A stretch of 64,000 nucleotides of DNA from a virus, in IMG/VR virus record IMGVR_UViG_3300024999_000062; one strand, 5' to 3'. A model generated the notes under the pieces. It saw only the letters and a program-made list of their open reading frames with translations. It made no database searches and had not been told where the DNA came from. Both the position numbers and the translations under genes were made by a program. Shown here one piece after another: positions 4,624-51,227 of the stretch (position 1 is its first letter; the number at the start of each line of letters is the position of its first letter).

Positions 4624-4808
4624 TGAATAAGAAAGAAGAATATAAAGAAAGACTGTCCAAGAAGACAGTAGCTGAACTAAAAGCTATTTATACTAGAGCT
4701 TTTGGCAAAGACCTTCTTCGTGGTTCAAAAAGAGAAATGATTTGTACATTGGCAAGTTCAATGAACTACCCCGCCGCAGAGCAGCGGGGTATCTGCCCCC
4801 CCCACTAG
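4623..4808 (+). CDS. small HeH/Rho_N-like protein whose 3' end runs into the IS element
   Basis: LSKKTVAELKAIYTRAFG...SKREMICTL resembles HeH/SAP/Rho_N helix-extension-helix motifs. The last 13 codons (YPAAEQRGICPPH) are encoded by the GC-rich IS end hairpin and C-run. Confidence 0.5.
   Translation: MNKKEEYKERLSKKTVAELKAIYTRAFGKDLLRGSKREMICTLASSMNYPAAEQRGICPPH
4769..4789. repeat. IS end hairpin (CCCCGCCGC-AGA-GCAGCGGGG)
   Basis: A 9-bp stem with one mismatch and a 3-nt loop, followed by a C8 run (4796-4803). Confidence 0.8.
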
Positions 4809-5260
4809 AAGATGGTTAACTGGGTAGTTTTGTGGAGCATTTTGTATTCCTTTTCGATCCCCTGTTCTTTGACGTACTTCGATATTGTTGTCTCATCTCC
4901 AAAACGGCTTACTGTATTTACAAAATATCCGTCTGTCCAGAATTCCCCTCCCCATAACTGTTTCTTGACTTCTGGAAATCGTTGGAATATCTCTTTTGCC
5001 GTAATACTTTTTATTATTGTTATAATTTTTGTACAACTGTAGGTTGGTACACTCTGTAACAGAAAATGTACATGATTTTTGTCTGTACCAATTTCTAAGA
5101 AATGTATCTGATATCGTTCTGATATTTCAAGGCATATTTCTTTTATTCCATTATCCACATTTTCATCAATTACTGATCTCCTATACTTGGCGGGACAAAC
5201 AAAATGATACAACAATACTGATACATTGTGCGATTTATGGATATATTCACTTTTATTCAT
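4805..5260 (-). CDS. tnpA: IS200/IS605-family Y1 (HUH) transposase TnpA
   Basis: About 151 aa. Motifs are YHFVCPAKYRRSVI, the HUH motif HVHFLL, and the catalytic-Tyr region FWTDGYFVNTV. The start was moved to ATG 5260, because the track start at 5266 is TTG. Confidence 0.9.
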   Translation of the reverse strand: MNKSEYIHKSHNVSVLLYHFVCPAKYRRSVIDENVDNGIKEICLEISERYQIHFLEIGTDKNHVHFLLQSVPTYSCTKIITIIKSITAKEIFQRFPEVKKQLWGGEFWTDGYFVNTVSRFGDETTISKYVKEQGIEKEYKMLHKTTQLTIF

Positions 5261-5279
5261 GCACAAATATATAAATTTA

Positions 5280-5294
5280 CGCCGCAGAGCGGCG
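5280..5294. repeat. IS end hairpin (CGCCGC-AGA-GCGGCG)
   Basis: A perfect 6-bp stem with a 3-nt loop, followed by a second small GGGG-AACTAA-CCCC hairpin (5294-5307). Confidence 0.8.
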
Positions 5295-5365
5295 GGGAAC
5301 TAACCCCGTAGCGATTAGATTTTTCAAGAAAATGGAAAGCTATAAGTTCATAAATAAACTATAAA

Positions 5366-5680
5366 ATGAAAAAGAACCCTTTTGCAGTTTTCGTATTAGC
5401 CTTGATGTTCTTTGCCTTACTAGAATCTCTGGTAGGTTGTAAGTCAGAACGTGGAGATAAATTAGAGAATATGAAATATATTCTCAGAGATCATACCGAA
5501 TTACCAATTTATGAGATTTATCAGAACGGAGATACAGTAGTCCACCTTCAAACCATACAATCAATGGCTAATGAAATAGACAGCTTAGATGAAGTAATTA
5601 GAATCAAGAATGCCTATTTTAATTTTCTGATGGTAGATATTGACTCCATAATTCAAGCAGATTGTCCAATTAAAAGATAA
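5366..5680 (+). CDS. putative lipoprotein
   Basis: Signal peptide with the lipobox-like LLESLVG-C (MKKNPFAVFVLALMFFALLESLVGCKSE). Confidence 0.6.
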   Translation: MKKNPFAVFVLALMFFALLESLVGCKSERGDKLENMKYILRDHTELPIYEIYQNGDTVVHLQTIQSMANEIDSLDEVIRIKNAYFNFLMVDIDSIIQADCPIKR

Positions 5681-19340: not shown

Positions 19341-19942
19341 TAAATAGAAGAGAGATATTAATTGATTTAGTTAATAGGTACAAGCTTCAGTCCTATCTTG
19401 AGTTGGGATTAAGAGACTCTAGTCTTACTTTTGACCATATCCCTTGTACTTTCAAGTTTTCAGTAGATGTTGAGTCAAGATGTAAGCCAAGTTTTTGTGG
19501 TTCTACAGATGAGTTTTTTAAACAAAGTAAAGAAAAGTTTGATCTAGTTCTTGTAGATGCCAATCATGAAGCTGAATTTGTTTATAGAGATTTGATGAAT
19601 TCAGTAAGATGTCTTAGTGATAATGGTATTGTTGTTCTTCATGATGTATTACCAATAAGGTTTGAAGATACTTCAAATAACCTAGACAATGGTACTGCCT
19701 GGAAGGTTGTGCCTCATGTTTTAAAGTATCATCCAGAATTACATATCTGTACAGTTCCAGAAACGAAGTGCGGGTGTGGAATTGTAATCAAGAACTTTGA
19801 AGGATGGAGAGCAATGCTAGACACCTCTTTTAATCTCTTCTATGACTATCATGTTATGAATCAGTATAGAGTAAAGTCCCAGAATTTAATTTCATATAGT
19901 AGATTGTCTGATTGGGTTCAGAAACCTTTTTATCAATTTTAA
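19337..19942 (+). CDS. class I SAM-dependent methyltransferase (paralogue 2)
   Basis: YLELGL, FKQSKEKFDLVLVDANHE and VVLHDVLP parallel 17249-17842. ATG 19337 overlaps the previous TGA (ATGA). Confidence 0.6.
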   Translation: MINRREILIDLVNRYKLQSYLELGLRDSSLTFDHIPCTFKFSVDVESRCKPSFCGSTDEFFKQSKEKFDLVLVDANHEAEFVYRDLMNSVRCLSDNGIVVLHDVLPIRFEDTSNNLDNGTAWKVVPHVLKYHPELHICTVPETKCGCGIVIKNFEGWRAMLDTSFNLFYDYHVMNQYRVKSQNLISYSRLSDWVQKPFYQF

Positions 19943-19944
19943 TT

Positions 19945-20547
19945 ATGGGAATCTTAAGAATAATCAAAGACTACGAAGAAAGTCAACTTAAACTAAGAGG
20001 TGTTAAGTATGAAGGCTTAGATTGGTGTGAATTGGGGAACCAAGATTTTGATGGTCAGCCAGCAAAAGACATTTATGAGAGTGAAGGTGTTAGTCATACT
20101 TCTATTGACTTGAATGGGCTAGATGGAGCTTTGTCCCTGGATCTATCCCAACCAATAGACTTAAAGAAGAAGTTTGATGTGATTACAAATTATGGGACTA
20201 CAGAACATTGTTGTGACCAGTATGAGTGCTTTAAGAATATTCATATTTTTTGTAAGAAGGGTGGGATAATGATTCATGGAGTGCCATTGGTAGGTAATTG
20301 GAGAAAGCATGGTAGGTATTATTATTCAGAGAAATTCTTTAGAGAGTTAGCTTCTGCTTGCAAGTATGAAGTTCAAGACTTTCAGGTTCTGAATAAAGAC
20401 TATTACCAGAAACCAAGGAATTTGGTTCTTGTTGTATTTGTAAAGAGACAAGCTAATTCATTTATTAGTAAAGAGAAGTTTCAGTCTATTCAAGGTTTGT
20501 TTGATTCAGGAGATATTTCTAAAACTCAAAACTATACTCAACAATGA
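19945..20547 (+). CDS. putative SAM-dependent methyltransferase
   Basis: FDVITNYGTTEHC...CKKGGIMIHGVP resembles the post-II/III blocks of class I methyltransferases, but the match is weaker. The ATG at 19945 is preferred over the TTG at 19912. Confidence 0.4.
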   Translation: MGILRIIKDYEESQLKLRGVKYEGLDWCELGNQDFDGQPAKDIYESEGVSHTSIDLNGLDGALSLDLSQPIDLKKKFDVITNYGTTEHCCDQYECFKNIHIFCKKGGIMIHGVPLVGNWRKHGRYYYSEKFFRELASACKYEVQDFQVLNKDYYQKPRNLVLVVFVKRQANSFISKEKFQSIQGLFDSGDISKTQNYTQQ

Positions 20548-21311
20548 ACTTTATAGAGAAGTTTTGGTCAGAGAATGCCAATAAGTATAAAGGTTCTCAT
20601 TGGGCTTCTTGGGGTGATAATTTTTCAATAGACTTGGAGATAGGTGTAATATCCAGACATATTAATAATGGAGACATGGTCTTGGATGTTGGTTGTGCCA
20701 ATGGGTACTCCACTTTTAAACAAAAAGACAGACATTCAATAAATATTGTTGGGGTGGATTTTTGTTATAACATGGTCAAGGTGGCTCATGAAAGAATGGA
20801 GAAAGAAAAGGCAGAAGGGATAAGCTTTATTAAAGGAGATGTTCGATGTTTACCTTTTGAAAACGATCTGTTCGATGTGACTTACACCACCAGAACCCTT
20901 ATCAATCTCCCAACCTGGAAAGAGCAAATGAAAGGAGTTGAAGAATGTTTGAGAGTAACTAGACCAGGTGGGAAAGTTATTTTATCTGAAGGGTTTGCTG
21001 AGCCACTGTTTAGATTAAATTCTCTAAGAGCTTTGTGTAATCTAAGTCCCTTATATGAACATGACTTCAATAGATATCTGAAGCAAGAACTCCTCGAAGC
21101 TTTTCTAGAAGAGAAGAACATTTACAAGTTTAAGAGTGAAGAGTTTAGTTCTACTTATTATTTAGGGAGTCGTTTTCTTCGAGAGCTTGAACAAACAAAT
21201 GAAAAGTACGAAGGTTATTCTAATCCAATAAATAAAGAGTTTTTTGAATTACAGTCTAAGTTTAAAACAAGAGGATTCGGTATCCAGATAGCCTATGTAA
21301 TTAACAAATGA
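20544..21311 (+). CDS. class I SAM-dependent methyltransferase (Methyltransf_11-like)
   Basis: VLDVGCANGYST (motif I), FDVTYTTRTLINL and TRPGGKVILSE. Confidence 0.75.
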   Translation: MNFIEKFWSENANKYKGSHWASWGDNFSIDLEIGVISRHINNGDMVLDVGCANGYSTFKQKDRHSINIVGVDFCYNMVKVAHERMEKEKAEGISFIKGDVRCLPFENDLFDVTYTTRTLINLPTWKEQMKGVEECLRVTRPGGKVILSEGFAEPLFRLNSLRALCNLSPLYEHDFNRYLKQELLEAFLEEKNIYKFKSEEFSSTYYLGSRFLRELEQTNEKYEGYSNPINKEFFELQSKFKTRGFGIQIAYVINK

Positions 21312-22081
21312 AAGTAGACCAATGTCATATTAGTTCTGGTGTAAGATTTTTTGGAAAAGGTTTCAAGAAAAAATGGGACTTGAAAGATTATTACAGCTCA
21401 ACTAAGCCTTGTATATTTCTAGGGTGTTACCAGACATCTGATGTAACAAAGATAAAAGAACACAAAGGTTTGAAGATTGTTCTCTTTACTGGCTCTGACC
21501 ATGTTAATATTCAACAGTTTGTACTGGAGGATGAAGTTTTTGTGATTAGTGATACAATGATCTGTAGAGACTATTTTAAAGATCTGGGAAACATCAAGGG
21601 CTCGAAGTTTTTAAGAATCCCTTTGAAAGACTATTCTTCATTCACTCCAGTATCAACAGGAAAGAAGATCTATGCTTATCAAGGTAAACCTTTAAGAAGT
21701 TTTCAGTCACATTATAGAAAAGACTTGTTAGATGTAGTAGTCAGGTATTTTGGAGAAGAGAACGTTATTATTGGATATCAAGGTCATGATATTGAGTTTG
21801 TGAAAGAGAATTATTATAAACAATCATTTGTCAATCTTCAATTAACACCAACACCTGGTCTTATAACCAGTATTGAGATGGCTCATATGGGAAGAAGAAG
21901 CATCTCAAATTATCCAGCCCCATATTGTATCCCGTTTGAAACTAGAGAAGATGTGATAAAATTGATTGAAAGAGAGAGAGATTCAGCTGAAAGTACAAAG
22001 GCAGTTGCTCAATTGGCCAGAAACTTTATGTTTCAAGGAGAAGATTGGTTAGACACTAAATTTTGGGAGTATGAACATTAA
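21308..22081 (+). CDS. hypothetical protein within the glyco/methyl island
   Basis: A 257-aa ORF with ATGA overlaps on both sides and no recognised motif. Confidence 0.5.
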   Translation: MKVDQCHISSGVRFFGKGFKKKWDLKDYYSSTKPCIFLGCYQTSDVTKIKEHKGLKIVLFTGSDHVNIQQFVLEDEVFVISDTMICRDYFKDLGNIKGSKFLRIPLKDYSSFTPVSTGKKIYAYQGKPLRSFQSHYRKDLLDVVVRYFGEENVIIGYQGHDIEFVKENYYKQSFVNLQLTPTPGLITSIEMAHMGRRSISNYPAPYCIPFETREDVIKLIERERDSAESTKAVAQLARNFMFQGEDWLDTKFWEYEH

Positions 22082-22697
22082 TTCTTACAGAATAGTTCAG
22101 ATGTTTGAAGAAGAAGTTGCAGAATATACTGGAGCCCCTTTTGCTGTTTCTGTTGATAGTTGTACGAATGCCTTATTTTTATGTTGTAAGTATTTGAATG
22201 TTAGACAAGTAACTATTCCTTCTAAAACGTATCTTTCAGTCCCTCAAGCCATCATTCATGCAGGTGGAGAAGTTATTTTTGACAAGAGAGAGACTTCTAA
22301 TAATTGGAAGGGTGTATATGAACTACATCCATACCCAATATATGATTCTGCCAAACGTTTTACTTCTAACATGTACTTTAATAATTCTTTCATGTGCCTT
22401 TCTTTCCATATAAAAAAGCATTTGAAGTTGGGTAAAGGTGGGATGATATTGACAGATAATAGAGAAGCTGTAGCCTGGTTCAAGAAAATGAGATATGAAG
22501 GGAGATCAGAGAAGATGTATCATGAAGATGATATAGATATGTTAGGTTTTAACATGTACATTACACCTCAACAGGCTGCTCATGGACTAGCTCTAATGCA
22601 GAACATGACAAAAAATAACAAAGATCTTGGTGAGAATAATGGTTACAGGGATTTAACAGAATTTACTGTTTTTAAGAATTGTAAAGTAATAGAGTGA
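22071..22697 (+). CDS. short DegT/DnrJ/EryC1/StrS-type PLP aminotransferase-like protein
   Basis: FEEEVAEYTGAPFAVSVDSCTNALFL and SFHIKKHLKLGKGGMILTD (a Lys-containing PLP block) match the sugar aminotransferase family. It is only 208 aa, against about 370 aa for typical members. Confidence 0.6.
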   Translation: MNINSYRIVQMFEEEVAEYTGAPFAVSVDSCTNALFLCCKYLNVRQVTIPSKTYLSVPQAIIHAGGEVIFDKRETSNNWKGVYELHPYPIYDSAKRFTSNMYFNNSFMCLSFHIKKHLKLGKGGMILTDNREAVAWFKKMRYEGRSEKMYHEDDIDMLGFNMYITPQQAAHGLALMQNMTKNNKDLGENNGYRDLTEFTVFKNCKVIE

Positions 22698-23446
22698 TGA
22701 TTAAACTATCAGTAGCCCTTCCAGTATTTAATAGTAAGAAGATTGCCTGGTTAGCCATGGAGAGTCTTTGTAGACAAAAAAATGTAGATTTTTTATGGGA
22801 ATTAGTAGTGGCTGAAGAAAATACAGGTGAATTTTGTGGTGAAAAATTTTTTAAAGGATATGAGGAGAGATTGAAGAAAGTAGCAGGTACCTTAAAGTAC
22901 ATAAAGCTTACTCAATGGATACCTTTATTCCAAAAGTGGAAGTTAATTGCATCTCAAACCGCTCAGACGTCTAGAACATTCATCTTACAGGCTGCTGATT
23001 GCTATTCTGAACCTCATAGACTAAGTAATACTTTTAGATATGTGAATAAAGGTTATGATTGGGTTCAGAATAAGAAGGGAGTGTTTTTTAATATTCGAAC
23101 TCATCAACACATAGTGTATGAAGATCTAGATGGAGTTCAGAATGCTGGTTTGAATATGGCTACTCTTACAGAGTATATGAGAAATTTACCTGATATACCA
23201 CGAAGAGCTTGTGTTGATGGATGGATTTACAAGAGTGTACAACCTAAGAATAAAATTAATCTTTTTGGTAGTGAATGTTTGTTTGGTGTAGACACACACG
23301 GGTTAAACAATATTTCAATAAAAAGAGAGAAGTTTTTTAATAATCCAGCTTTCCCGTTTACAAAGACTGACTTAAGAATAGAAAGTTGTTTGCCCACCCA
23401 AATCTCCCAAAGACTTTATGCTCTGAGAACAGAATGTTATGAATAA
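22697..23446 (+). CDS. GT2-like glycosyltransferase
   Basis: LSVALPVFNSKKIAWLAMESLCRQ resembles the GT2 N-terminal block, and LQAADCYSEP resembles the DxD region. The ATG at 22697 overlaps the previous TGA. Confidence 0.5.
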   Translation: MIKLSVALPVFNSKKIAWLAMESLCRQKNVDFLWELVVAEENTGEFCGEKFFKGYEERLKKVAGTLKYIKLTQWIPLFQKWKLIASQTAQTSRTFILQAADCYSEPHRLSNTFRYVNKGYDWVQNKKGVFFNIRTHQHIVYEDLDGVQNAGLNMATLTEYMRNLPDIPRRACVDGWIYKSVQPKNKINLFGSECLFGVDTHGLNNISIKREKFFNNPAFPFTKTDLRIESCLPTQISQRLYALRTECYE

Positions 23447-24161
23447 GATTGATGTTGTAATCCCACTAGGTCCAGGTTCCATCTGGCAAGATAATGAAGT
23501 TCGATATGCTATAAGATCAGTTTGTAAGTACTTTGTTGATCTTGGCAGAGTCTTTGTTGTTGGAGAAAAGCCTGACTTTTTAAACTGGTCCAATTCAAGA
23601 TTAGTTCATGTAGATCAAAGAGATGTTCATGGTGATGATAAGGACTTGAATCTGATCATTAAGGTTTTGAAAGCTTGCTATAGTGGTGTAAGTGATCAAT
23701 TTGTTCGAATGAGTGATGACCAGTGTTTTTTACAGCCAGTTCTTGTCAAAGACTTAGTTCCTTATTATTTATATGATCTGAAAACTCGTACTGACTATAA
23801 TAATAGATGGAGTAAGAGACTTGAAAATACAAAAAAAATGTTGTTGGCTGAAAATAAGTCAACTTTTAACTATGAATCTCATTTCCCAATGGTCTATGAG
23901 AGAGAGAAGTTTGTTTCAGTGATGAATGAACTTAAGAATCAAAAAGCTACAATAAATACTTGGTACTTTAACAAGACATTGTCAGAACATCAAGAGATTC
24001 CACAAGGGTATAAGTATACTGCTGAATCTCCAATGTATACTTTTGATGAAAAGATCTTGTTTGCAAGATTCTTAGGGTATAATAATAAGGGAGTTAGGGA
24101 AGGGGTGTTAAAGTCTGTTCTAGAAAGATTTTTTTCTGAGAAGTGTTTTTTGGAAGTGTGA
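23439..24161 (+). CDS. Stealth-like (CR1/CR2-like) putative sugar-phosphate transferase
   Basis: IDVVIPLG..., DNEVRYAIRSVCKYF...RVFVVGEKPDFLNW and MSDDQCFL recall Stealth conserved regions. This is a low-certainty call by eye. Confidence 0.35.
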   Translation: MNKIDVVIPLGPGSIWQDNEVRYAIRSVCKYFVDLGRVFVVGEKPDFLNWSNSRLVHVDQRDVHGDDKDLNLIIKVLKACYSGVSDQFVRMSDDQCFLQPVLVKDLVPYYLYDLKTRTDYNNRWSKRLENTKKMLLAENKSTFNYESHFPMVYEREKFVSVMNELKNQKATINTWYFNKTLSEHQEIPQGYKYTAESPMYTFDEKILFARFLGYNNKGVREGVLKSVLERFFSEKCFLEV

Positions 24162-24195: not shown

Positions 24196-24549
24196 ATGAA
24201 TCTGGGTAGTCCTCAACAGTATGAGCCTATTGTATTAGTCAATAGGTATGATGTCACAAAAGCCCCTTTAAATCTTCGATACAAGTTACAAGCTCATTTA
24301 AATTATTCTATTCAGATAGTTTGTACTGGTCTAGATAAGGCTGATGCTGTCGTAAAAGTTCAACAGTCAAATGACCCTGATTTAGGGTTTGATGACCATC
24401 CCACTTTTAGTTGGAGTCCTGGAGTAGGCTCAAGCTCTCACAGTTTTGTGTCAACAGTGCCTCTTGGGACTGCTTGGTTGAATGTAAATTTAGTGAAAGG
24501 GACAAATACGACTGGTACTGTAACAGTTATTCTTCAAATAAATAAATAG
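24196..24549 (+). CDS. hypothetical beta-rich protein
   Basis: A 117-aa ORF with phage-like composition. Confidence 0.5.
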   Translation: MNLGSPQQYEPIVLVNRYDVTKAPLNLRYKLQAHLNYSIQIVCTGLDKADAVVKVQQSNDPDLGFDDHPTFSWSPGVGSSSHSFVSTVPLGTAWLNVNLVKGTNTTGTVTVILQINK

Positions 24550-24551
24550 AA

Positions 24552-24788
24552 ATGGGATCAATAACTTATTACCCAATTTCATATACGGGTACATCTCCTA
24601 TTCAGACTGAGCCTTTTATAGCAGGAGCTGGAGATACAACTTTTACCCCAACATTGTTTATCTTGAATACAACATGTCTGGTGTTTGTTAATGGGGCTTA
24701 CCAGAGTTGGGGGTGGTCAATTGTAGCTGGTTCAATTGTTTTTGCTGTTGGTTTAGTAGCTGGTTCAGAAGTGTTAATTATTAATTAG
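24552..24788 (+). CDS. hypothetical small beta-rich protein
   Basis: A 78-aa ORF rich in Gly/Thr/Val. Confidence 0.45.
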   Translation: MGSITYYPISYTGTSPIQTEPFIAGAGDTTFTPTLFILNTTCLVFVNGAYQSWGWSIVAGSIVFAVGLVAGSEVLIIN

Positions 24789-24795
24789 AGAAACA

Positions 24796-26853
24796 ATGAA
24801 GAAGATGTTATTTGTATTGTTGTTATTTTTGTCAATAACAGTTTGTTCTCAGATAAGAACTACTGTGATTTCAGTCCCAGATGCAGTAACAACTTTTAAA
24901 GTAGCTTTTCCAGCTGGAACTCAAGTATGTCAAGAAGATATAGGTGTTATATATGAGTTGACAGCTTATACAGTTGGGACTAAGACTTTAACTACAGCGA
25001 CTAAACGAGTTTTATCATCTGGTCCAGAAGTCGATCCAATATGGAAAGCTGATACAGCAAATGTCCCCAGACTAGGGACACAAAATATATTTACCAAATA
25101 TAACGAATTTCAAGGTAATAATCTATTCTCCGATTCCGCAACATTTCAAAGTAAAATTTGTTTGGGAACAGATTTGAATGGCTATAGGTCGTCAATATAT
25201 GACGATGGAACATTACAACTATGGAGGACTGGAGTTATAAAAAGCTCTTATGTTTATGTAGACACAAATTATGTAGGACTATATACGCAGAATTATGGAA
25301 TCACTGTGAACGATACCTCTTCAATGATTTCTAACCCGACACCAATACAGATGACAGGTGATGTGTTATTTAATAATAAAACTGTTCATTTAGACTCAAT
25401 AAGTCTAATAGGAGGAAGTCTTCAAGACAGCATATATGTATATTCTGACGGGAATTTACATATAGACAAATATGATGGTGCAGGAACAAATGGAACCATT
25501 ACGGGTAATGGTGCATGGGTGTTGGAGTCAAATACAACCGCAATTACTGGTGCTTTGTTTCAGAGTTCATTGTCTATTAACGCAGGAGAGACCTATATGT
25601 TGGCAAAAAAAAATTATGCCGGCACTGAATATAGGCAGAACAAACTAACAAGCAACATAAATGGTTTTATTTTTAACACGTCAACTAAAACAACATCAGT
25701 AGATGGATTAGTTGGTGATACATTAGGTAATGTTACTGTTGCTACAGAATTAAGATCTAATAGATTAAACACAAACATAAATGACACTATGGAGTTTGTT
25801 GATGATGCTATATTTGACAGTACGGTAACAGTGAATGGAAATTTTTATGCAGGAAATTCTACAGATGACACAACAAATGTGTCAGGAGATATAAAAATTG
25901 CTGGAAAAACGGCAGTAGGGGCAACAACGTACTTTCATCAACTAAATATTAACAGCAACCTTGCAACTAATTTAAACTCGATTTGTATTTATGACGGAGA
26001 TATAAACAAAAATACTTCTTCGGCAGCTCAGCAAAGAGATACTGCCGCATTTTATATATATAAAACACTTTTAGGAAAAACAATTTTTGGCGCAAAATCT
26101 GTTCTCGGCGCAAATCTTTTTAGTATGGATTCTGTTGGAACGTGGAGAATAGGTGGTGGTACAAACGTAACGTCATATGTTAGTACATTAAATGTAACAA
26201 AAAGCAGTACAGGAGGAGCTATTGCAGCGGTATACACTGGCTCAAGCTCATCTACCGCAGGCGGAGAAATAATTATAGCACAAGACGATAATGTAAACAC
26301 GTCAGTTGGAGACATGTTTGCAAAACTTACTTTAAAGGCCGCTCGACAAGCTGGTGGAGGATTGTATGCTGGCGCAATGATAGCGGCAATTGCGGCTGAA
26401 ACATTTGCAAATAGCAAATATGGGTCAAATCTATATTTTTACACAGTACCCATAAATACAGCCTCTCTACTGCCGGAATTTATAATTTATAATTCCGGCA
26501 TTATTTCTCAAACATATAATTTATATGAATCAGATTCTTTAAAGTTACAAAGAGAATCTTCAAGTTTAGCAGATGGTGGAACAATAACATTAGCTACAGG
26601 ACAAAGTGGTTATGGCACATTATATGTTGATAGCGCTGGGTTTAGAAAAATATTAATTTATTTTTCTTTTCAAGACGATGGAACAACATGGTTAGATGCT
26701 TCATATAATACTGGCAGTGGCTGGACAACTGCTGCAACAACGGATACACCTGGGAATGTATGTGTTTATGATGCCGGTGCGGGTGTAGCAATTAAAATAA
26801 ATTTAAATTATCGGACAGGAGTTAGACTTAATGTAAATTATGCAACGAATTAA
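24796..26853 (+). CDS. secreted or lipoprotein-type fibre-like beta-rich protein (chimeric composition)
   Basis: The signal peptide is MKKMLFVLLLFLSITVCSQ. 685 aa, rich in Thr/Asn/Gly/Ser. CpG-containing codons appear abruptly from about 25000 onward. Confidence 0.6.
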   Translation: MKKMLFVLLLFLSITVCSQIRTTVISVPDAVTTFKVAFPAGTQVCQEDIGVIYELTAYTVGTKTLTTATKRVLSSGPEVDPIWKADTANVPRLGTQNIFTKYNEFQGNNLFSDSATFQSKICLGTDLNGYRSSIYDDGTLQLWRTGVIKSSYVYVDTNYVGLYTQNYGITVNDTSSMISNPTPIQMTGDVLFNNKTVHLDSISLIGGSLQDSIYVYSDGNLHIDKYDGAGTNGTITGNGAWVLESNTTAITGALFQSSLSINAGETYMLAKKNYAGTEYRQNKLTSNINGFIFNTSTKTTSVDGLVGDTLGNVTVATELRSNRLNTNINDTMEFVDDAIFDSTVTVNGNFYAGNSTDDTTNVSGDIKIAGKTAVGATTYFHQLNINSNLATNLNSICIYDGDINKNTSSAAQQRDTAAFYIYKTLLGKTIFGAKSVLGANLFSMDSVGTWRIGGGTNVTSYVSTLNVTKSSTGGAIAAVYTGSSSSTAGGEIIIAQDDNVNTSVGDMFAKLTLKAARQAGGGLYAGAMIAAIAAETFANSKYGSNLYFYTVPINTASLLPEFIIYNSGIISQTYNLYESDSLKLQRESSSLADGGTITLATGQSGYGTLYVDSAGFRKILIYFSFQDDGTTWLDASYNTGSGWTTAATTDTPGNVCVYDAGAGVAIKINLNYRTGVRLNVNYATN

Positions 26854-27971
26854 TGAGACAATTATTATTTATATTATTAGTGTGTTATTCTTTCTCTTGT
26901 AAAGGTCAAATGGTAATAGATGGGTCAGTTTCTTACAACCCAGAATCTATAACAACAAATACTGGAATAACAATATCTGGAAATCCTACAATAGTAGGAT
27001 ACGGCGATTCAAATACAAAACATTATTCTTCAGAACCAAGTATAACCGTAGAAGGATGGGAGCCATATTCAGATGGCTATATGAATGTGTTGATGGGTGG
27101 TTATCCTTTTTTTTATGGTTCAACTATCGTTAATTCTGGCACTCCTGGAATGACATCCACTACAGCAATCACTAACTTTACTACAAAAGTTAGAGCATAT
27201 TCTCCTAGAATTGTTGTGATGGGATTTGGAACTAATGACCTGGGTGTTGTTAGCTACAATACTTATATAACTAACATGGGCATATTGATAGATTCGATAT
27301 TATCAATACAAGCACAGCCTGTTTTGTTAAACATACCGTGGCGGGAAAACGCAAATGCAAGTACGTTGGCGCAATTTAATGCGGGTTTAGATAGCATTGT
27401 TATAGCAAATAATTTGTCTGAATTATTAGATGTTTACACGGTAACAAATAGTACCCCTATTTATAATTTGATGGAAACCGGATTACCGGGCAACGAGAAA
27501 AGACATTGGACATATTTTATTAGTAATTATATTTCTCACAAATTTAAAGAAACATGGACAGTATATACAAGTTTAGATACGGCCGATTATATAACTACAT
27601 TTAATTCTGGAAATATATTAACAACATTTAATTCAATATATGACACTACCGGAGTGTCTGAATATTTTAAGTCTTACCATATTGGGCACTATGTTAGTGT
27701 TAATGGAGATTCTATAAAAAATGATTTTGAAACATTTTTAGTGCCAAAAGATAGCACAATTGGTATTTCTTTTTTAGGGAAATTATGTATAGGATTTTAT
27801 ACACTATCCGCAAGTACTACGGTAGTGGTATCGGGAACAATTAATAGAAGTTGGCTGATGAATACAGCTACAACCTGCAATCAAAGACAATCAATAATGA
27901 GCGATAAAGTTGAAATTATTTTTCTAACACCAAATAAAGATATTAGAATAAGAACAATTAGCAAAGAATAA
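26853..27971 (+). CDS. SGNH/GDSL-family hydrolase with lipoprotein-type signal peptide
   Basis: MRQLLFILLVCYSFSCKGQ, then GYGDSNT (block I GDS) and MGFGTNDL (block III GxND). I did not find block V clearly. Confidence 0.6.
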   Translation: MRQLLFILLVCYSFSCKGQMVIDGSVSYNPESITTNTGITISGNPTIVGYGDSNTKHYSSEPSITVEGWEPYSDGYMNVLMGGYPFFYGSTIVNSGTPGMTSTTAITNFTTKVRAYSPRIVVMGFGTNDLGVVSYNTYITNMGILIDSILSIQAQPVLLNIPWRENANASTLAQFNAGLDSIVIANNLSELLDVYTVTNSTPIYNLMETGLPGNEKRHWTYFISNYISHKFKETWTVYTSLDTADYITTFNSGNILTTFNSIYDTTGVSEYFKSYHIGHYVSVNGDSIKNDFETFLVPKDSTIGISFLGKLCIGFYTLSASTTVVVSGTINRSWLMNTATTCNQRQSIMSDKVEIIFLTPNKDIRIRTISKE

Positions 27972-28087
27972 TGAGACAAATATTATTTATATTATTAATA
28001 TTATTATTGTTAAGTAATACTGTATTTTATTCAGATACAGACGATATAACAGTAAAAACACTTACACTGTTTGGAATGGGAATGTAA
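27971..28087 (+). pseudogene. 38-aa ORF, likely a remnant 5' stub of a signal-peptide gene
   Basis: It starts with TAATGAGACAAATATTATTTATATTATTA, which matches the start junction of the SGNH gene at 26851 in 28 of 29 nt. It encodes MRQILFILLILLLL... and then stops. Confidence 0.35.
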
Positions 28088-28097
28088 AATTTTAGAT

Positions 28098-28517
28098 ATG
28101 AAACTATTAAACAATAAGTTCACATTAGCTGTAATAGGCACAATTATAGGAGGTGTTGTTACATGGCTTGTAATAGGTATGTTAACTTCATATAAAGACC
28201 GCGAAGCAAATATTGATTCTATTCCAAACGTAAAACAAAAGGTCGAAAATCTGGAGCAATTTCACATAAGCAACAAGGCAGAAATAGCAGAAGCCCGCAA
28301 GTCATTGCAACAACAAATTGACACCCTGCGGGATAAATCCTTAACAACTAATGGCAACTTTAATGAATTCCTCGAAACGTATAAGCAAGACCAGAAGATG
28401 AACAGAATTATACTTATTGAAATTTGTAAAACACAAAAAGAATTAAGTAAGTTGATTCCAATTCTCGATAATTTAAAAACCGTTAATAATAATCAAACAT
28501 CAAATAATCTTAAGTAA
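28098..28517 (+). CDS. membrane-anchored coiled-coil protein
   Basis: An N-terminal TM segment (FTLAVIGTIIGGVVTWLVIGMLT) is followed by a helical charged region. The ATG at 28098 is preferred over the TTG at 28071. Confidence 0.55.
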   Translation: MKLLNNKFTLAVIGTIIGGVVTWLVIGMLTSYKDREANIDSIPNVKQKVENLEQFHISNKAEIAEARKSLQQQIDTLRDKSLTTNGNFNEFLETYKQDQKMNRIILIEICKTQKELSKLIPILDNLKTVNNNQTSNNLK

Positions 28518-28547
28518 AGTTTGAAGAATTTTTAATATCTTTATGCC
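28517..28547 (+). promoter_or_regulatory. Class-II promoter-like element (TTTTTAATATCTTTAT core)
   Basis: AAGTTTGAAGAATTTTTAATATCTTTATGCC lies immediately before the ATG at 28548. The same 16-nt core occurs at 40520-40536, upstream of the sheath gene. Confidence 0.35.
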
Positions 28548-28961
28548 ATGAGAGTAATTATAATTCGTACTTATCTAGAGAAGGAGACTGTAGGTCATCT
28601 TTCTGTTATTGATGATTGTAAAGAAGAGGTTTATACTTGTCATACAGTTGAGCTCCCGAATAAGGATAACCAGAGAAATATTAGTTGTATTCTTGAAGGT
28701 ATTTACGATGTCCAGAAAGAAAAGCCAAATGCTCACTTCAAGTATGTTCACTTTAGTATATTGAATGTGCCAAATAGATCAGGGATAATGATACACATTA
28801 CCAATTATGTTTCTCAGTTAAGAGGTTGTATTGCTCCTGGAAGAGACTTAGTTGATATGAATGGTGATCGCTTACCAGATGTTAATTATTCAAATGTAGT
28901 AATGAAAGAGTTAGCCAAGTTACTTCCAGATAAGTTTAAGTTAGAGATTAAATCAAAATAA
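28548..28961 (+). CDS. DUF5675-like / YkuD-fold-like protein (possible cell-wall enzyme)
   Basis: IMIHITNYVSQLRGCIAPG resembles the H-x(n)-G-C-[IV] catalytic block of L,D-transpeptidase (YkuD) folds. The overall pattern recalls DUF5675. Confidence 0.45.
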   Translation: MRVIIIRTYLEKETVGHLSVIDDCKEEVYTCHTVELPNKDNQRNISCILEGIYDVQKEKPNAHFKYVHFSILNVPNRSGIMIHITNYVSQLRGCIAPGRDLVDMNGDRLPDVNYSNVVMKELAKLLPDKFKLEIKSK

Positions 28962-28964
28962 AGA

Positions 28965-30725
28965 ATGGGTTTGTTCACTTTGTTTCATTATTCAGATTCT
29001 CAGCTTCAACGTTATAAAGAACTTGAAGATCAGATAGTTATTGTGAAAGCAGAAGCTGGAAAAGAGTTTGAGTTGTTTACTACATTTCAGAAGAATTGTC
29101 AAGATAGGCTAAGAGTAATTTTTTTACAGTTAGAGAAGGCAAAGTCACTGGAATTGGTTGAAACTAGAGAATTTATTCAGAAAGGTTATAGATCAGCTTG
29201 GTCAAAGTATTTACAAAAGATTTCTAGTCTTAGAGTTAGCCTCCAGAAGACACAAGAAGCACAAGTCAGTTTATTGAAGCACAAGTCAGTTCGTAGTTAT
29301 GTGTCTTTTAAGAATGAAGATCAGACTGAGTTAAAGAAAGCTATAAACTCTCTTGTTCTTGGTTATTCAGCTAATCAAATTGAAAGAGAAGAGTTCTCAA
29401 AGGGATTCTCCAGAGTGTTATCTCTGGATATTGAAAATCCGGGAATAATAGACTATTTTGGTGTAATTTTAGAGAAGGCAGAAAAGAGAGCTCTATTCCA
29501 GGACTTTATTGATGTTATCAAGGAAGCTATTGGTAAAGGTAAGAAGAAGACTAAATATGCTGATGGTATTATCTTCAATGATAAAGGAGAAATACTTTTT
29601 CTTCGAAGAAAGCCAGATGCTGAATTTGCCCCTTATGAATATGGTCTTCCTGGAGGGCATGTTGATTTTGGTGAAAATCCACAAGATGCAGTTAAGAGAG
29701 AGATTAGTGAAGAGTGTGGTGTTACAGTAAAGACTTGTGAACTAAAAGAAAGATATGAAGATGACAAAGTAATCATCTTCTATTTCCAGTGTACTCTTCA
29801 AGAGCCCTATGAAGTTGTTTTAACTAGAGATGAACACTTTAATTATGAATGGCTATCTCATGAAGTCCGTCAGACAAAGTCTTTGATATCTAACTTGAAT
29901 GACAATCTTAATAGAATTTATGGAATTGAAGGCAAGAGAGATTTTGAGAAAGCAGAAGTAGAGAGAGTTGATGATGACATCTTGAAGCCTTTTACTGAAG
30001 AACAGATAGCCAAGAAGTATGAAATTACTGAAGAAGAAGCTAAAATTTTTCTAGATGAAGGCAAGAAAGTAGAAAAAGAACATACTAAGAATAAAGAAGT
30101 GGCTAGAACAATAGCCTCTCATCATATTTACAAAGAGTCAAAAGACTATTACCCGGAACTTAAGAAGCTGGAAGATAAGTTTAAGGAAGATGGGATTGAG
30201 AAAGCTATGTCAGATGTTTTATTATCTGTTGAAGATAGTGATGATGAAGAGCAAATAATTGAAAAAGCTGGAAGAGTATTTAGTAAACTAACAAAGAATA
30301 TGACTGTAAATAAGAAAGGTTTTTTGCAGACTGTATATCGGTCCCATCCAAATCAGAGTAGTGTTACTAACTCTAACAGGATGAAAGTTAATCAAAAGGT
30401 TAAGACTGGTGGTGACAGTGAAATGGATGTTGATACTTTTGTGAAGAAGTTTGGACATAGAGTTCATTATACAGTAAAACAACACCCAGAAACAAAAAAG
30501 ACCTATACTTATATGGGTGGTGAAGATAAGAAGGGTGGAGTAGTAAGAGAGATTCAACTTAAACCATTTACTCTTTCTCATGAGTTTGATGAAGATACCA
30601 TGGAGCATTTAAGATCTTATGCTGATGGTAAAGAGATTTCAAAAGAAGAAGGGATTAACCATGAAAAAGAGCTGAAACAAATGGGTTTCAAATTAATTAG
30701 AGAACGAGAACAATCAGAAGAATAA
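28965..30725 (+). CDS. large protein with embedded Nudix hydrolase domain
   Basis: A perfect Nudix box, G-HVDFG-E-NPQDAVK-RE-I-S-EE-C-G-V, sits at 29655-29723. It is flanked by about 195 aa of helical N-terminus and about 260 aa of C-terminus that includes EKEHTKNKEVARTIASHHIYKESKDYYPELKKLE. Confidence 0.8.
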   Translation: MGLFTLFHYSDSQLQRYKELEDQIVIVKAEAGKEFELFTTFQKNCQDRLRVIFLQLEKAKSLELVETREFIQKGYRSAWSKYLQKISSLRVSLQKTQEAQVSLLKHKSVRSYVSFKNEDQTELKKAINSLVLGYSANQIEREEFSKGFSRVLSLDIENPGIIDYFGVILEKAEKRALFQDFIDVIKEAIGKGKKKTKYADGIIFNDKGEILFLRRKPDAEFAPYEYGLPGGHVDFGENPQDAVKREISEECGVTVKTCELKERYEDDKVIIFYFQCTLQEPYEVVLTRDEHFNYEWLSHEVRQTKSLISNLNDNLNRIYGIEGKRDFEKAEVERVDDDILKPFTEEQIAKKYEITEEEAKIFLDEGKKVEKEHTKNKEVARTIASHHIYKESKDYYPELKKLEDKFKEDGIEKAMSDVLLSVEDSDDEEQIIEKAGRVFSKLTKNMTVNKKGFLQTVYRSHPNQSSVTNSNRMKVNQKVKTGGDSEMDVDTFVKKFGHRVHYTVKQHPETKKTYTYMGGEDKKGGVVREIQLKPFTLSHEFDEDTMEHLRSYADGKEISKEEGINHEKELKQMGFKLIREREQSEE

Positions 30726-30730: not shown

Positions 30731-31927
30731 ATGAACCAAAAAAGAATTAATTTCTTTATCCCATTAGAGATAGAGAAGTCAGCAGATGAAAAGGGCAAAA
30801 AGAAGATGCTTGTCAAAGGTGTTGCTTCTACTAAAGATAAGGATACTGATGATGAAGAACTTGATACTTCAGGGTTTGATCTATCTTATCTAAATAGATA
30901 TGGTTTTTTAAATTGGCATCACCAAGCTAAAGGTACTCCAGCAGCCGTTATTGGTGAGCCTACAAAAGCTGAACTGACTCCAAAGGGTTTGTACATCGAA
31001 GGTGAACTTTATGCTGATTCAAAGCTTGCAAAGGAAGTCTATCAGTTAGCTGAACTCTTGGAAAAGTCAGGTTCAACAAGACATCTTGGTTTTTCTATTG
31101 AAGGTAATGTAGTAGAAAGAGGTTCAAAAGATGAGAAACATCCAGACTTTAAAAAGATTCTTAAGTCACAAATCACGGGAGTAGCCATAACTCACATGCC
31201 AAAGAATAACAATACTCTCCTTTCCATTATGAAGGGGCAGGCTGAGAACCTTTACGAAGAAGTTGAGTTTGAAGTTATTGAAAAGGGTCAGAAGGGTGAA
31301 ACAAATCTTATTATTGATATCACAGATGATTTATTAGATCAAAGAATTACTGTTGATAAAGATCTGAATCTGAAGATCGAAAAAGCTGGTGAAGGTAGTA
31401 GAGGTGGGAAAATCATCGGCCATACAAAATCTGGTAAACCTATATACAGTAGTACTGTTAATTATCATGATTTACATAAAAACTTCACTGCTAAAGATCA
31501 TGAAGATGCTAAACAGCATCATTTAGGTGTAGCTAAAAAACATTTTCAGGAAGCTGAGGAGCATGAGAAGAGATCTGAAGACAAGACTTTGAGCAGTGAA
31601 CAAAGAAAAGAACATGAAGTGAAAATGAATGAATCATCTAAACTTTCAGGTGTACATAGTAGTCTAGCTGACTATCATCGTTCAGAAAAATTTAAGGCAC
31701 CAGAAAAAGAGATAGAAAAATCTATTGATACATCAAATGCTGGAGCCATAATTCGTGAAGATCTAGAACATGCAGTTCACATCTCTCCAGAGGAGAAGAA
31801 GAAAAAAGAACAAGCAATCTGTACTATTACTAAGGCATTCACATCTGGTCAGATTGATGAAAGAGAATTTGAGAATATAAAAAGACAGTTAATTGAAAAG
31901 AGAAAGAGTAATAACCAAAATCAATAA
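30731..31927 (+). CDS. prohead (capsid maturation) serine protease with long C-terminal extension
   Basis: The N-terminal 170 aa fit the HK97-family prohead protease pattern (KGVASTKDKDTDDEELD, LNWHHQ, GLYIEGEL, LGFSIEG). It lies upstream of the scaffold and capsid genes. Confidence 0.7.
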   Translation: MNQKRINFFIPLEIEKSADEKGKKKMLVKGVASTKDKDTDDEELDTSGFDLSYLNRYGFLNWHHQAKGTPAAVIGEPTKAELTPKGLYIEGELYADSKLAKEVYQLAELLEKSGSTRHLGFSIEGNVVERGSKDEKHPDFKKILKSQITGVAITHMPKNNNTLLSIMKGQAENLYEEVEFEVIEKGQKGETNLIIDITDDLLDQRITVDKDLNLKIEKAGEGSRGGKIIGHTKSGKPIYSSTVNYHDLHKNFTAKDHEDAKQHHLGVAKKHFQEAEEHEKRSEDKTLSSEQRKEHEVKMNESSKLSGVHSSLADYHRSEKFKAPEKEIEKSIDTSNAGAIIREDLEHAVHISPEEKKKKEQAICTITKAFTSGQIDEREFENIKRQLIEKRKSNNQNQ

Positions 31928-34809: not shown

Positions 34810-36291
34810 ATGAATCACTTAGGGATACGTCTTGAAGATTATGAATCAATCGGTAACGGTTTTGGTGTTACCAACCAGAAAGATGTCGATCAGCTGTTAA
34901 AAGCTCTCGAGTCTGGTCAGACAACTGGTCGTGAGACGACCAATTCGTTAACTGCCTCTGGTGCCCCTTTAAAAGTGGAAGACCTTGAAGGTACTCTCCA
35001 CTCTGTAACTTTTGATGAACAGGACATTAAGTTCTGGAAACGGGTTACAAAAATGCCTGCATATAATACTGTTGTTGAGTATTTGAGACTTGTCAGTCCA
35101 GGTGCTGAACGTGGTGGTTTCGTAACTGAAACTGAATTACCAGAAGAAGAAGATTCAGTATACCAACGTGCTGCTGAGTTAGTTAAATTTACTGCTGTAA
35201 CAAAGAGTGTATCTTTAGCAATGGAGATGGTAAACACTTTCGAAGGAGTAGGTAAGATTATCCAACGTTCAGTACGTGAAGGCACACTTTGGATTCTCAG
35301 AAAAAATGATCGTGCTCTTGCCTTCGGTAATGCCAATGTTATTCCACAAGAATACAATGGTCTCTATCGTCAGCACATTAATGGTTTCACAACTCTTAAT
35401 GATTGGCATAATTCTGATAACGTTGTTGACATGAGAGATCATCGTCTGTCAGAAACCGGTATTGAAGATGCTGCTCTTGGGATCAGAAAGAATTACGGGT
35501 TTGGTAACTTACTGATGACATCTCCAGTAGTTGTATCAGATTTTGTTAAAAACTTCCATGAGTCTAAACTTATCCAACCTAATACAGTCCAGGTATCTGC
35601 TGGTGAAATGGGTCAGAAAGTTACGACTTTCAATTCCCAGTTTGGGAGAATTGAATTGGATGATGATATCTTTTTAGCAGAGAACCCTCCACGTAGAACT
35701 GGAGATGTTGCCACTTTTTCTAAAGCTCCTGCAAATATTGTCCCAGTTGCTGTAGCAGCTGTAGCAGACGTTGCTGGTAGCAGATTTGGTGCTGCTTTTG
35801 ATGGTGATTACTTTGTTGGAGTAGCTGCTATTAATCGTTATGGTGAATCTCAAGTTACAGCTTTGCAAGCTGGTTTATTAACTGTAGCTGCTACAGAATC
35901 TATTGCTTGTCAGTTTACTGCTGGTGGTGGAGCTTATGCTCCTACAGGTTATGTAATCTATCGTAGTAAGTTAAACCCTACTACTACTCTTGCTAATACC
36001 GACTTATATCCAGTGTTCATGGTTTCAACAGCTGAATTGGCTGCTGGTTATGATGGTGGTGGTGCCGGTATTGTTTGGGATCGTAATAGGTTCATTCCTG
36101 GTACTGAAAAAGCCATCCTGATTCAGAATGATTCTCAGGTTTATAGCTTTAAACAGCTTGCACCTTTGATGAAACTTGATCTTGCCTTACTTGCCCAGGC
36201 TCGTAGATTCGTAGTTATGCTGTATGGGACACCAGTTCTTTACACTCCAAAGAAAATGACTGTTGTCATTAATATTGGGAAACAAGTTTAA
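34810..36291 (+). CDS. major capsid protein
   Basis: 493 aa, following the protease and scaffold. Codon choice is distinctly biased (GGT/GCT/CGT/ACT), consistent with high expression. A strong terminator follows. Confidence 0.7.
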   Translation: MNHLGIRLEDYESIGNGFGVTNQKDVDQLLKALESGQTTGRETTNSLTASGAPLKVEDLEGTLHSVTFDEQDIKFWKRVTKMPAYNTVVEYLRLVSPGAERGGFVTETELPEEEDSVYQRAAELVKFTAVTKSVSLAMEMVNTFEGVGKIIQRSVREGTLWILRKNDRALAFGNANVIPQEYNGLYRQHINGFTTLNDWHNSDNVVDMRDHRLSETGIEDAALGIRKNYGFGNLLMTSPVVVSDFVKNFHESKLIQPNTVQVSAGEMGQKVTTFNSQFGRIELDDDIFLAENPPRRTGDVATFSKAPANIVPVAVAAVADVAGSRFGAAFDGDYFVGVAAINRYGESQVTALQAGLLTVAATESIACQFTAGGGAYAPTGYVIYRSKLNPTTTLANTDLYPVFMVSTAELAAGYDGGGAGIVWDRNRFIPGTEKAILIQNDSQVYSFKQLAPLMKLDLALLAQARRFVVMLYGTPVLYTPKKMTVVINIGKQV

Positions 36292-51202: not shown

Positions 51203-51227
51203 CAAGAATTTTTATAATTTTAGAAAA

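Follow-up and report, generated by a model that had tools for sequence, protein, structure and literature searches.

A CpG-normal module encoding a tailspike-like protein and an SGNH esterase, both predicted to be exported, in a CpG-purged Bacteroidota myovirus

The IMG/VR virus record IMGVR_UViG_3300024999_000062 provided a stretch of 64,000 nucleotides (nt), here called the window, and between its positions 24998 and 28481 lies a segment of 3.5 kb whose composition is foreign to the DNA around it. The segment takes in the greater part of a gene for a 685-residue tailspike- or fibre-like protein, a complete gene for a predicted stand-alone SGNH esterase and a gene for a small membrane protein that precedes a putative endolysin. 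We propose, with a probability of about 0.6, that this is a host-envelope module imported by homologous recombination from a CpG-normal phage, and that its tailspike-like protein and its esterase are exported through the Sec pathway to act, late in infection and alongside the adjacent lysis genes, on glycans of the envelope.

Composition and borders of the foreign segment

In a maximal-scoring-segment scan of the window, 24998-28481 was by far the strongest CpG-rich stretch, with 81 CpG dinucleotides where 24.5 are expected at the outside rate (Poisson P=1.7e-19). Its CpG observed/expected ratio (o/e) is 0.82, compared with 0.276 for the window as a whole and 0.23 for the backbone, by which we mean the window outside the segment. 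These borders are nearly identical to the approximately 25.0-28.5 kb proposed in an earlier note on this DNA, which was made from the sequence alone and had called the region compositionally foreign, and CpG, codon, dinucleotide and re-encoding statistics all agree with that description. The shift in GC content that the earlier note had thought worth plotting is not present: GC is 0.339 in the segment and about 0.31-0.36 around the locus, and only the CpG and dinucleotide signature changes.

The excess is carried by synonymous positions and codon boundaries. NCG codons make up 32 of 293 NCN codons inside the segment and 92 of 3334 outside it (odds ratio 4.3, P=1e-9), and CpG across codon boundaries has an o/e of 1.12 inside versus 0.26 outside, while CGN arginine codons are not significantly enriched (7/27 inside versus 145/817 outside, P=0.31). 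The list of CpG-containing codons said earlier to become frequent is thus right for the NCG but not for the CGN codons; likewise, the roughly 20 CpG reported for 26041-26460 are in fact 17, which still exceeds a background of about 3 per 420 nt. When the cassette proteins were re-encoded with backbone codon usage they yielded 53±7 CpG, and none of 200 simulations reached the observed 81, whereas native genes of the backbone, including fibre-like genes at 52.4-56.5 kb, contain only 35-56% of their simulated CpG. These controls exclude amino-acid composition as the cause. By dinucleotide-signature distance (delta*) the cassette stands 227 from the backbone and is the top outlier of all 3.5-kb windows, and it remains so when CG is left out (204 versus about 80 for the next non-overlapping window); its distance to two phage loci, designated L010 and L011, is only 87 and 102. 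The window contains no tRNA genes that could be the source of CpG patches.

We then considered which side is anomalous. In the backbone, GCG and CGC contexts stand at 0.02-0.16, GCGC at an o/e of 0.02 with one site in 60.5 kb (the cassette has five), and GpC is also low at 0.74. The relatives have CpG o/e values of 0.83 (L010), 0.91 (L011), 1.09 (the phage locus L012) and 0.79 (Chryseobacterium phage MA9V-3), and Bacteroidota genomic loci around homologs of the window's transposase, which we treat as candidate host loci, range from 0.47 to 1.46 with a mean of 0.88. Because relatives and candidate host loci are both CpG-normal, it is the backbone that is odd, and the purge is specific to this lineage. 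The transposase in question, an IS200/IS605-family TnpA (4805-5266, minus strand; Y1_Tnp E=5e-36) and the sole sizeable reverse-strand gene, lies in a second CpG-normal patch (4719-5527, o/e 0.88), which serves as an internal control indicating that, in this genome, DNA of normal CpG content is a sign of recent acquisition. The cassette, too, looks recently imported. A third CpG-rich patch, 34828-35496 in the major head protein gene, differs in kind, with CGN for 15 of 24 arginine codons and NCG for only 3 of 123, and may reflect either the codon preference of a highly expressed gene or another recombination tract. As for the cause of the purge, deamination is rejected by TpG/CpA, which is not raised in the backbone (1.09 versus 1.18 in the cassette), and mimicry of the host by the CpG o/e of the candidate host loci; avoidance of restriction or defence may be the reason.

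The left recombination junction falls within 24955-24998, inside the conserved N-terminal domain (residues 20-117) of the fibre-like gene. Upstream of it the window has 0 CpG, versus 7 in L012 and 2 in a further related phage locus, L013; near 24954 the window reads TATGA where both L012 and L013 read TACGA; and from 24998 onward the window has CpGs in common with L013, at exactly matching places (ACAGCGACTAAACGAG). Within open reading frame (ORF) 24796-26853 the first 66 codons are free of CpG and the first one occurs in codon 68, so the switch does take place inside this frame, as had been noticed before. The ORF had been read as a chimera of a phage-type signal peptide and first domain with an imported body; segmental homology bears out the chimera, and places the joint inside the first domain rather than after it. 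At the other end, CpG declines towards backbone level between 28481 and about 28570, where the right junction is flanked by the putative endolysin gene (28548-28961; CpG o/e 0.38, near backbone).

The tailspike-like protein, the esterase and the lysis-cassette gene

The 685-residue protein (24796-26853, plus strand) starts with a predicted N-terminal signal peptide of the Sec/signal peptidase I (SPI) type, spanning residues 1-18 with cleavage at VCS|Q19, and its segmental homology shows it to be a mosaic in four parts, related to tailspike-like proteins encoded on other phage contigs. Residues 1-117 match P0004 (78%) and P0005 (58%), residues 99-194 match P0002 (69%), residues 192-349 match P0003 (41%), and the C-terminal part matches both P0002 (residues 483-685, 54%) and P0003 (residues 570-685, 75%). 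The body that the earlier note had called imported is in turn composed of at least three more segments, related to different phage proteins. No Pfam, PHROG, NCBIfam or PDB entry matches the window protein itself; its homologs P0002, P0003 and P0005 match tailspike or virion-structural PHROGs and Beta_helix, in central regions not common to the window protein. Residues 20-117 are common only to L012 and L013, which also have the 78-residue gene found upstream in the window, and the distal segments are common to the unrelated backbones L010 and L011, so that the protein is laid out like a fibre or tailspike with a backbone-specific N-terminal attachment domain and exchangeable distal parts. A 65-residue ORF at 2493-2690 begins with MKKMLFVL, the same eight residues with which the signal peptide of the fibre-like protein starts.

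Directly upstream lie two native genes. The first (24196-24549, plus strand, CpG o/e 0.24) encodes a 117-residue protein without Pfam, PHROG or NCBIfam match, a conserved partner of the fibre-like gene with a weak L012 homolog in the same position (121 residues, 29% over 58 residues). The second (24552-24788, plus strand, CpG o/e 0.12) encodes a 78-residue protein, a small beta domain that also occurs within tail-fibre proteins; it is 54% identical to a 72-residue protein of L012 and 52% identical to a 64-residue protein of L013, both in the same position, and weakly matches the tail-fibre family phrog_2710 (E=4.8e-5). The canonical fibre candidates of the window are elsewhere, at 52.4-56.5 kb after the baseplate wedge, and no domain is common to the cassette proteins and these baseplate-adjacent candidates. 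Beyond the homologs named here, the fibre-like protein had no match among 50,697 GenBank phages (tblastn), IMG/VR scans with the protein and with an alignment of its C-terminal domain returned nothing, as did a scan of Joint Genome Institute (JGI) metagenomes with an alignment of the N-terminal domain, and a word-indexed search with the C-terminal third gave no scored match. Sequence searches of the PDB with the fibre-like protein, P0002 and the DUF5675 protein described below found nothing meaningful.

The second gene (26853-27971, plus strand) encodes 372 residues with a predicted signal peptide (residues 1-18, CKG|Q19), an SGNH domain at about 40-240 and a C-terminal beta-sandwich at about 245-372. 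Lipase_GDSL scores 26.4 bits against a cutoff of 23.6, and Lipase_GDSL_2 29.3, under its cutoff of 32.9. An exhaustive HMMER search recovered 133 relatives, 37 of them below E=1e-10 and the best at E=2.5e-29, and across 25 family members G51-D52-S53-N54-T55 (with Ser53), Gly96, G126-T127-N128 (with Asn128) and His218 are invariant; the acidic partner of the histidine is probably E215, in E-K-R-H, rather than the usual DxxH. A single-sequence AlphaFold2 (AF2) model was discarded at a predicted local distance difference test (pLDDT) of 32; with the 25-sequence alignment the model reached a pLDDT of 74 and a predicted TM-score of 0.78, with pLDDT >90 over most of residues 100-200, and shows the SGNH domain followed by the beta-sandwich. 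Foldseek matched this model to 1YZF, TesA, Axe2 and similar structures (E~1e-8 to 1e-9, TM-score by target 0.75-0.80), as well as to two-domain carbohydrate esterases (6HH9), many phage esterases, tail-fibre esterases and SGNH tailspikes. Collectively, sequence and model identify the protein as a predicted SGNH esterase with an intact catalytic set that belongs to the family of tail-fibre esterases. Its best homologs are proteins of 490-936 residues with N-terminal adapters (Phage_T7_tail, BppU_N, tail-collar and several tail-fibre PHROGs) in which the esterase region starts at residue 130-550; in the window protein it starts at about residue 43, and a signal peptide occupies the place of the virion adapter, which is absent. 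No match was found among the 50,697 GenBank phages (tblastn). This gene had been described earlier as an SGNH lipoprotein: the fold and the N-terminal signal peptide stand, while the lipobox implied by that description is non-canonical, with Cys16 preceded by S-F-S, which departs from [LVI][ASTVI][GAS]C at -3, and the SPI site CKG|Q19 two residues later fits the Bacteroidota Q-rule (below) and accounts for the N-terminus at least as well.

The esterase gene is bracketed exactly by a direct repeat of 29 nt, 28/29 identical, whose copies lie start-to-start 1118 nt apart, the length of the gene. Copy 1 (26851-26879, plus strand) comprises the TAATG stop/start overlap and the first 9 esterase codons, and copy 2 (27969-27997, plus strand) comprises TAATG and the first 9 codons of a 38-residue ORF (27971-28087, plus strand), which starts MRQILFILL where the esterase starts MRQLLFILL. 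L007 and L009 have a gene call for this ORF, and its LLLSNTVFY resembles LLSFTLFY and LLSFTKFY in exported proteins encoded behind the fibre genes of L010 (12425-13039) and L011 (12673-13305). It is probably the 5' remnant, consisting of the signal peptide only, of the gene of about 205 codons found at that place in L010 and L011, and we infer that the esterase gene was inserted at the start of this resident gene and left the stump behind.

The module ends in a 139-residue protein (28098-28517, plus strand; CpG o/e 0.94) with a helical tail and an N-terminal transmembrane (TM) helix, which hydropathy puts at about residues 7-25. This agrees with the membrane coiled-coil protein of the earlier note insofar as it is a single-pass TM protein with a helical tail, and its position assigns it to the lysis cassette. 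It weakly matches the holin family phrog_6918 (E=0.016). Positional analogues of similar architecture occur in L010 (116 residues) and L011 (119 residues), with which it has no detectable homology (hhalign probability 2.5%), and in L012 (115 residues), where the TM helix is C-terminal. No embedded or adjacent lipobox ORF that could supply an o-spanin partner was found at this gene, and the protein is best described as a lysis-cassette membrane protein, putatively holin- or i-spanin-like.

The gene ends 30 nt before that of a putative endolysin of 137 residues (28548-28961, plus strand; DUF5675, PF18925 E=1.1e-23), which sits where L011, L012 and L010 have Peptidase_M15_3 and Glucosaminidase endolysins. 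A proposal in the literature treats DUF5675 as a lysin domain of C82-like peptidase type (bioRxiv 10.64898/2026.04.11.717860). An order of fibre, exported protein or proteins, TM/coiled-coil protein, in some cases a 2-TM holin-like protein, endolysin and lipoprotein/spanin-like protein recurs in L010, L011 and L012. The spanin-like genes behind the relatives' endolysins lie at 9767-10477 in L012, 14199-14789 in L010 and 14455-15039 in L011; the 236-residue L012 protein combines the lipobox LLKC with a C-terminal TM helix and is unimolecular-spanin-like, and those of L010 and L011, of about 195 residues, have FKGC and LKGC. No spanin-like gene lies beside DUF5675 in the window.

Predicted export and competing explanations

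The fibre-like protein begins with MKKMLFVLLLFLSITVCS|Q, a classical n-h-c layout, and predicted cleavage before glutamine recurs in all five of the fibre homologs (VCS|Q in the window, TFG|Q in L010, GFS|Q in L011, TFA|Q in L012 and VFA|Q in L013), although L010 and L011 have N-terminal domains that are not related to the window's. The esterases found in the same slot belong to two Pfam families, SGNH in the window (CKG|Q) and SASA in L012 (LHC|Q), and by inspection the fibres and both esterases have a tripartite peptide, small residues at -1 and -3 and Gln at +1. Gln at +1 is the Q-rule, which is specific to Bacteroidota (PMC5837995), and Q-rule proteins of unassigned function are known in Porphyromonas gingivalis phages (PMC10367356). 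The earlier note had taken the signal peptides as an argument for export, and this argument is strengthened by the Q-rule pattern and by an accompanying enrichment of glycosylation sequons.

Bacteroidota confine O-glycosylation at the sequon D-(S/T)-(A/I/L/V/M/T) to non-cytoplasmic proteins, and throughout the phylum these proteins are enriched in it (PMC12871550; PMC8550257). We counted 12 sequons where 3.7 are expected in the fibre-like protein, 6 versus 1.3-1.4 in the esterase and 2 versus 0.3 in the TM protein. Signal-peptide-bearing module proteins of five phages together hold 68 versus about 23 expected, an excess of about 3-fold, while four control motifs were flat and large structural proteins without signal peptide hold 34 versus 25. 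Within the esterase family the observed/expected ratio is 1.09 for members without signal peptide (n=105), 1.16 for those with a signal peptide that lacks the Q (n=23) and 2.8 for those with a Q-rule signal peptide (n=5), the strongest cases being the window esterase (6 versus 1.4) and P0025 (18 versus 5.3). Each of the window esterase's six sequons is kept in at most one of 24 aligned homologs. The combined signal-peptide and sequon pattern favours export and probable O-glycosylation. Cargo of the type IX secretion system was rejected, since neither Por_Secre_tail/TIGR04183 nor TIGR04131 was found in the fibre-like protein, the esterase, P0002, P0003 or P0005 (E<=0.1-1).

Several observations weigh against this reading. 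Signal peptides were called by inspection and a crude hydropathy rule only, and the sequon analysis, while controlled, was prompted by the Q-rule finding and is post hoc. A mild sequon excess also occurs in proteins without signal peptide, namely an 816-residue protein of the window (7 versus 3.6) and a 592-residue protein of L011 (5 versus 1.5). We found no signal for export across the outer membrane, so the predicted destination may be the periplasm or the inner envelope. The segments common to homologs have only 72-77% DNA identity, from which it follows that the true donor is unsampled. To these must be added the tailspike, virion-structural and Beta_helix matches of the homologs, the location of the gene behind large tail-like genes in L010 and L011 and the co-variation of its N-terminal domain with the upstream 117- and 78-residue genes.

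The last three points would be expected if the 685-residue protein were an ordinary virion fibre or spike of tail, neck or head, the esterase a docked accessory virion enzyme and the cassette a host-range swap, the hydrophobic N-termini being unused as signal peptides or buried in the particle. The weak tail-fibre match of the 78-residue protein and the overwhelmingly virion-borne character of the esterase family point the same way, and in MA9V-3 the same slot holds a 1459-residue protein with neither a signal peptide nor sequon enrichment (6 versus 5.7). Such an arrangement must nonetheless explain Q-rule signal peptides on five of five fibre homologs and on esterases of two Pfam families, an esterase devoid of any adapter domain and a sequon enrichment that tracks Q-rule signal peptides within a single esterase family. 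Assembly of tailed phages is cytoplasmic, which also counts against it. So does the report that phage receptor-binding proteins targeted by diversity-generating retroelements have no signal peptides (PMC6199706). We consider a virion location a serious but distinctly less probable alternative.

As for where the cassette came from, its composition, sharp borders and homologs in other genomic contexts are those of a horizontally acquired island, and the evidence points to the phage gene pool rather than a bacterial chromosome as its source. Capture from a Bacteroidota chromosome would accommodate a cassette CpG of 0.82, which lies within the range of Bacteroidota loci, and the host-type character of Q-rule signal peptides and O-glycosylation sequons, and exported tailspike-fold enzymes do exist in bacteria, such as WceF (PMC7949094). 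However, the search for a bacterial donor that the earlier note had suggested gave none: the conserved C-terminal domain of the fibre-like protein (~115 residues) has no relative in GTDB (one genome per species, 185,579 species), which argues against such a donor, its homologs are all on phage-like contigs, with the four partial ones beside endolysins, the closest esterase homologs are phage tail-fibre proteins, and the dinucleotide signature is close to that of L010 and L011. We regard a bacterial donor as very improbable. That nothing was transferred at all, and that the CpG excess reflects local constraint from amino-acid composition, expression or codon adaptation in a vertically inherited region, is close to refuted. 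Fibre proteins are unusual in composition, and CpG is also frequent, in a manner that looks expression-related, over the 5' half of the gene for the major head protein, where CGN arginine codons supply it; in the cassette, by contrast, the signal is carried by synonymous and codon-boundary CpG, re-encoding excludes amino-acid composition, the native fibre-like genes are CpG-purged, the boundary is sharp and inside a domain, the signature is foreign even without CG, the IS200 patch provides an independent internal control, and mosaicism, the 29-nt repeat and the stump ORF remain as structural scars. Neither an integrase nor a transposase is encoded within 24.2-29.0 kb, and the sole significant repeat brackets the esterase gene alone; the transfer is best explained by homologous recombination.

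The reading that we prefer, an imported module whose products work in the host envelope, would thus run as follows. DNA corresponding to 24998-28481 would have been recombined in recently from a CpG-normal phage lineage, with the left crossover inside the conserved N-terminal domain, so that the incoming body, already a mosaic, came to follow in frame on the signal peptide and first ~48 mature residues of the resident gene. The gene for the stand-alone SGNH esterase would have entered the module at the start codon of the gene behind the fibre-like one, copying the first 9 codons of that gene as the 29-nt repeat and leaving the 38-codon stump. The single-pass membrane protein would close the module and open the lysis cassette, ahead of the putative endolysin with DUF5675. 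The tailspike-like protein and the esterase would not join virions in the cytoplasm but would be exported into the envelope by the host's Sec machinery and signal peptidase I, with Q at +1, and would probably be O-glycosylated in the envelope of the infected cell. Their target there, late in infection, would be a glycan of the surface or the periplasm, which they would bind or cleave and also de-O-acetylate. Acting alongside the neighbouring lysis genes, they would help to release progeny, destroy receptors and so limit re-adsorption and superinfection, or do both.

Genomic setting, known systems and implications

PHROG matches place the window in a myovirus, with a portal (7039-8682), head maturation protease (30731-31927), major head protein (34810-36291), tail sheath (40551-42212), baseplate wedge (51192-52427) and large terminase (59841-61511). 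Three further assemblies, one of them from groundwater, one a JGI metagenome and one an SRA run, contain the same phage at >=99.9% identity with the cassette intact, and the longest contig with the fibre gene is 98 kb; the window is a piece of a Bacteroidota myovirus of ~98 kb that has undergone a strong CpG purge throughout its own genome. The source metagenomes are JGI 3300025154, ERZ909597/SRR1658469 and SRR3309375. That the host belongs to the Bacteroidota is indicated by three independent lines: the closest cultured major head proteins are those of Bacteroides thetaiotaomicron phages (41%) and of MA9V-3 (38%), the closest relatives of TnpA (68-78% amino-acid identity) are nearly all in Bacteroidota metagenome-assembled genomes, and the predicted exported proteins follow the Q-rule. 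The IS200 TnpA appears as a mobile element inserted in a lytic-type myovirus genome. The DNA of 23.5-31 kb had no blastn match among the 50,697 GenBank phages, a scan for sigma-70 promoters and terminators returned counts at chance level, with Bacteroidota promoters outside its coverage, and PADLOC defence and superinfection-exclusion families gave nothing significant.

Other small ORFs of the window have lipoprotein-type features. That at 56576-56929 (117 residues, ILFFGC|KKEE) directly follows the 816-residue fibre-like gene behind the baseplate wedge and is very weakly similar to the PHROG of Cor, a superinfection-exclusion family (E=0.064); its product may be an o-spanin or else a lipoprotein that blocks receptors. 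One of 104 residues at 5366-5680 has the canonical lipobox LVGC and no family match, and lies beside the IS200, partly within its CpG-normal patch. Downstream of the DUF5675 gene, 28965-30725 immediately precedes the gene for the head maturation protease and encodes 586 residues, of which ~199-300 form an internal NUDIX domain; its counterpart is a long form in L012 (566 residues) and a stand-alone 235-residue protein at the same place in MA9V-3, an IMG/VR scan with the NUDIX protein yielded distant matches only, and inside the gene, at 29256-29291, a perfect 16-nt repeat, GAAGCACAAGTCAGTT, occurs in two copies 20 nt apart. Upstream of the module, 19912-24161 forms a glyco island of S-adenosylmethionine-dependent methyltransferase-like genes, a truncated DegT/DnrJ/EryC1-type aminotransferase (208 residues) and a Stealth_CR2 protein. 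This island, for which the earlier note had suggested a possible functional link to the cassette, is CpG-purged, hence native, and did not travel with the cassette; L012 has a comparable set (Methyltransf_24, TOD1_MUCI70, Stealth_CR2) downstream of its lysis genes instead.

Mosaic exchange of tail fibres and tailspikes and fibre-borne SGNH esterases are well known, and the transfer itself is ordinary. As in such exchanges, the N-terminal domain is kept, the crossover falls inside it and the distal parts are swapped among phages; the window differs in that its proteins carry signal peptides of the cleavable type, its gene lies beside lysis genes, outside the tail/baseplate module, and the CpG purge shows the import at near-nucleotide resolution. 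Tail-fibre and tailspike SGNH esterases of phages (Pectobacterium PP99/PPWS4, Vibrio and Klebsiella phages, and SFP21A Gp09, PDB 9LNA) are of the same catalytic family with the same invariant SGNH blocks, and our model has in addition a beta-sandwich behind the SGNH domain, with two-domain carbohydrate esterases such as 6HH9 among its fold matches, whereas the tail-fibre enzymes are fused to virion adapters and the window protein has no adapter but a Q-rule signal peptide and a sequon excess. The lipoproteins of the T5 Llp and Cor type are small, receptor-blocking and encoded beside receptor-binding genes. They, too, illustrate phage genes that use host export, but the window holds a predicted-export tailspike-like protein of 685 residues together with an enzyme. 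Esterase genes near lysis genes are known from the SASA-type NanS-p of Shiga toxin (Stx) prophages and from mycobacteriophage LysB. L012 has a SASA esterase in exactly this slot beside the lysis cassette; the window enzyme instead falls in the tail-fibre esterase clade and has a Sec signal. The Q-rule proteins of P. gingivalis phages (PMC10367356) have Gln at +1 as in the window and have no assigned fold or function. WceF of Pantoea stewartii (PMC7949094) is tailspike-like, bears a signal for export and works on exopolysaccharide of the cell that makes it, but it is chromosomal, Tat-exported and without sequence similarity to the window protein. What is unusual here is the CpG-purged background, the stand-alone tail-fibre esterase bearing a signal peptide, and the recurrent Q-rule and sequon signature beside lysis genes; for this signature on tailspike-like proteins beside lysis genes we found no description in the searchable literature.

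A broader proposition, which we hold to be doubtful, is that Bacteroidota phages possess a whole class of tailspike-like proteins and esterases that are routed through Sec and O-glycosylated in the periplasm by the host's general system. The glycan might then be altered by the phage's adjacent methyltransferase/glycosyltransferase island. In its boldest form, glycoproteins matured in the periplasm would be picked up at lysis by fibreless particles, yielding glycosylated fibres assembled outside the cytoplasm; in a milder form, the proteins would constitute a lysis-associated, receptor-destroying 'inside-out depolymerase' set of a new kind.

The genome-wide CpG purge acts as a built-in clock that marks recent arrivals, both the module and the IS200, at near-nucleotide resolution. 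If the predicted export holds true, Bacteroidota phages would remodel the envelope glycans of the infected cell from inside, with consequences for the annotation of 'tail fibres', for host-range prediction and for depolymerase mining in gut and environmental Bacteroidota phages, and phage use of the Bacteroidota O-glycosylation system would become directly testable.

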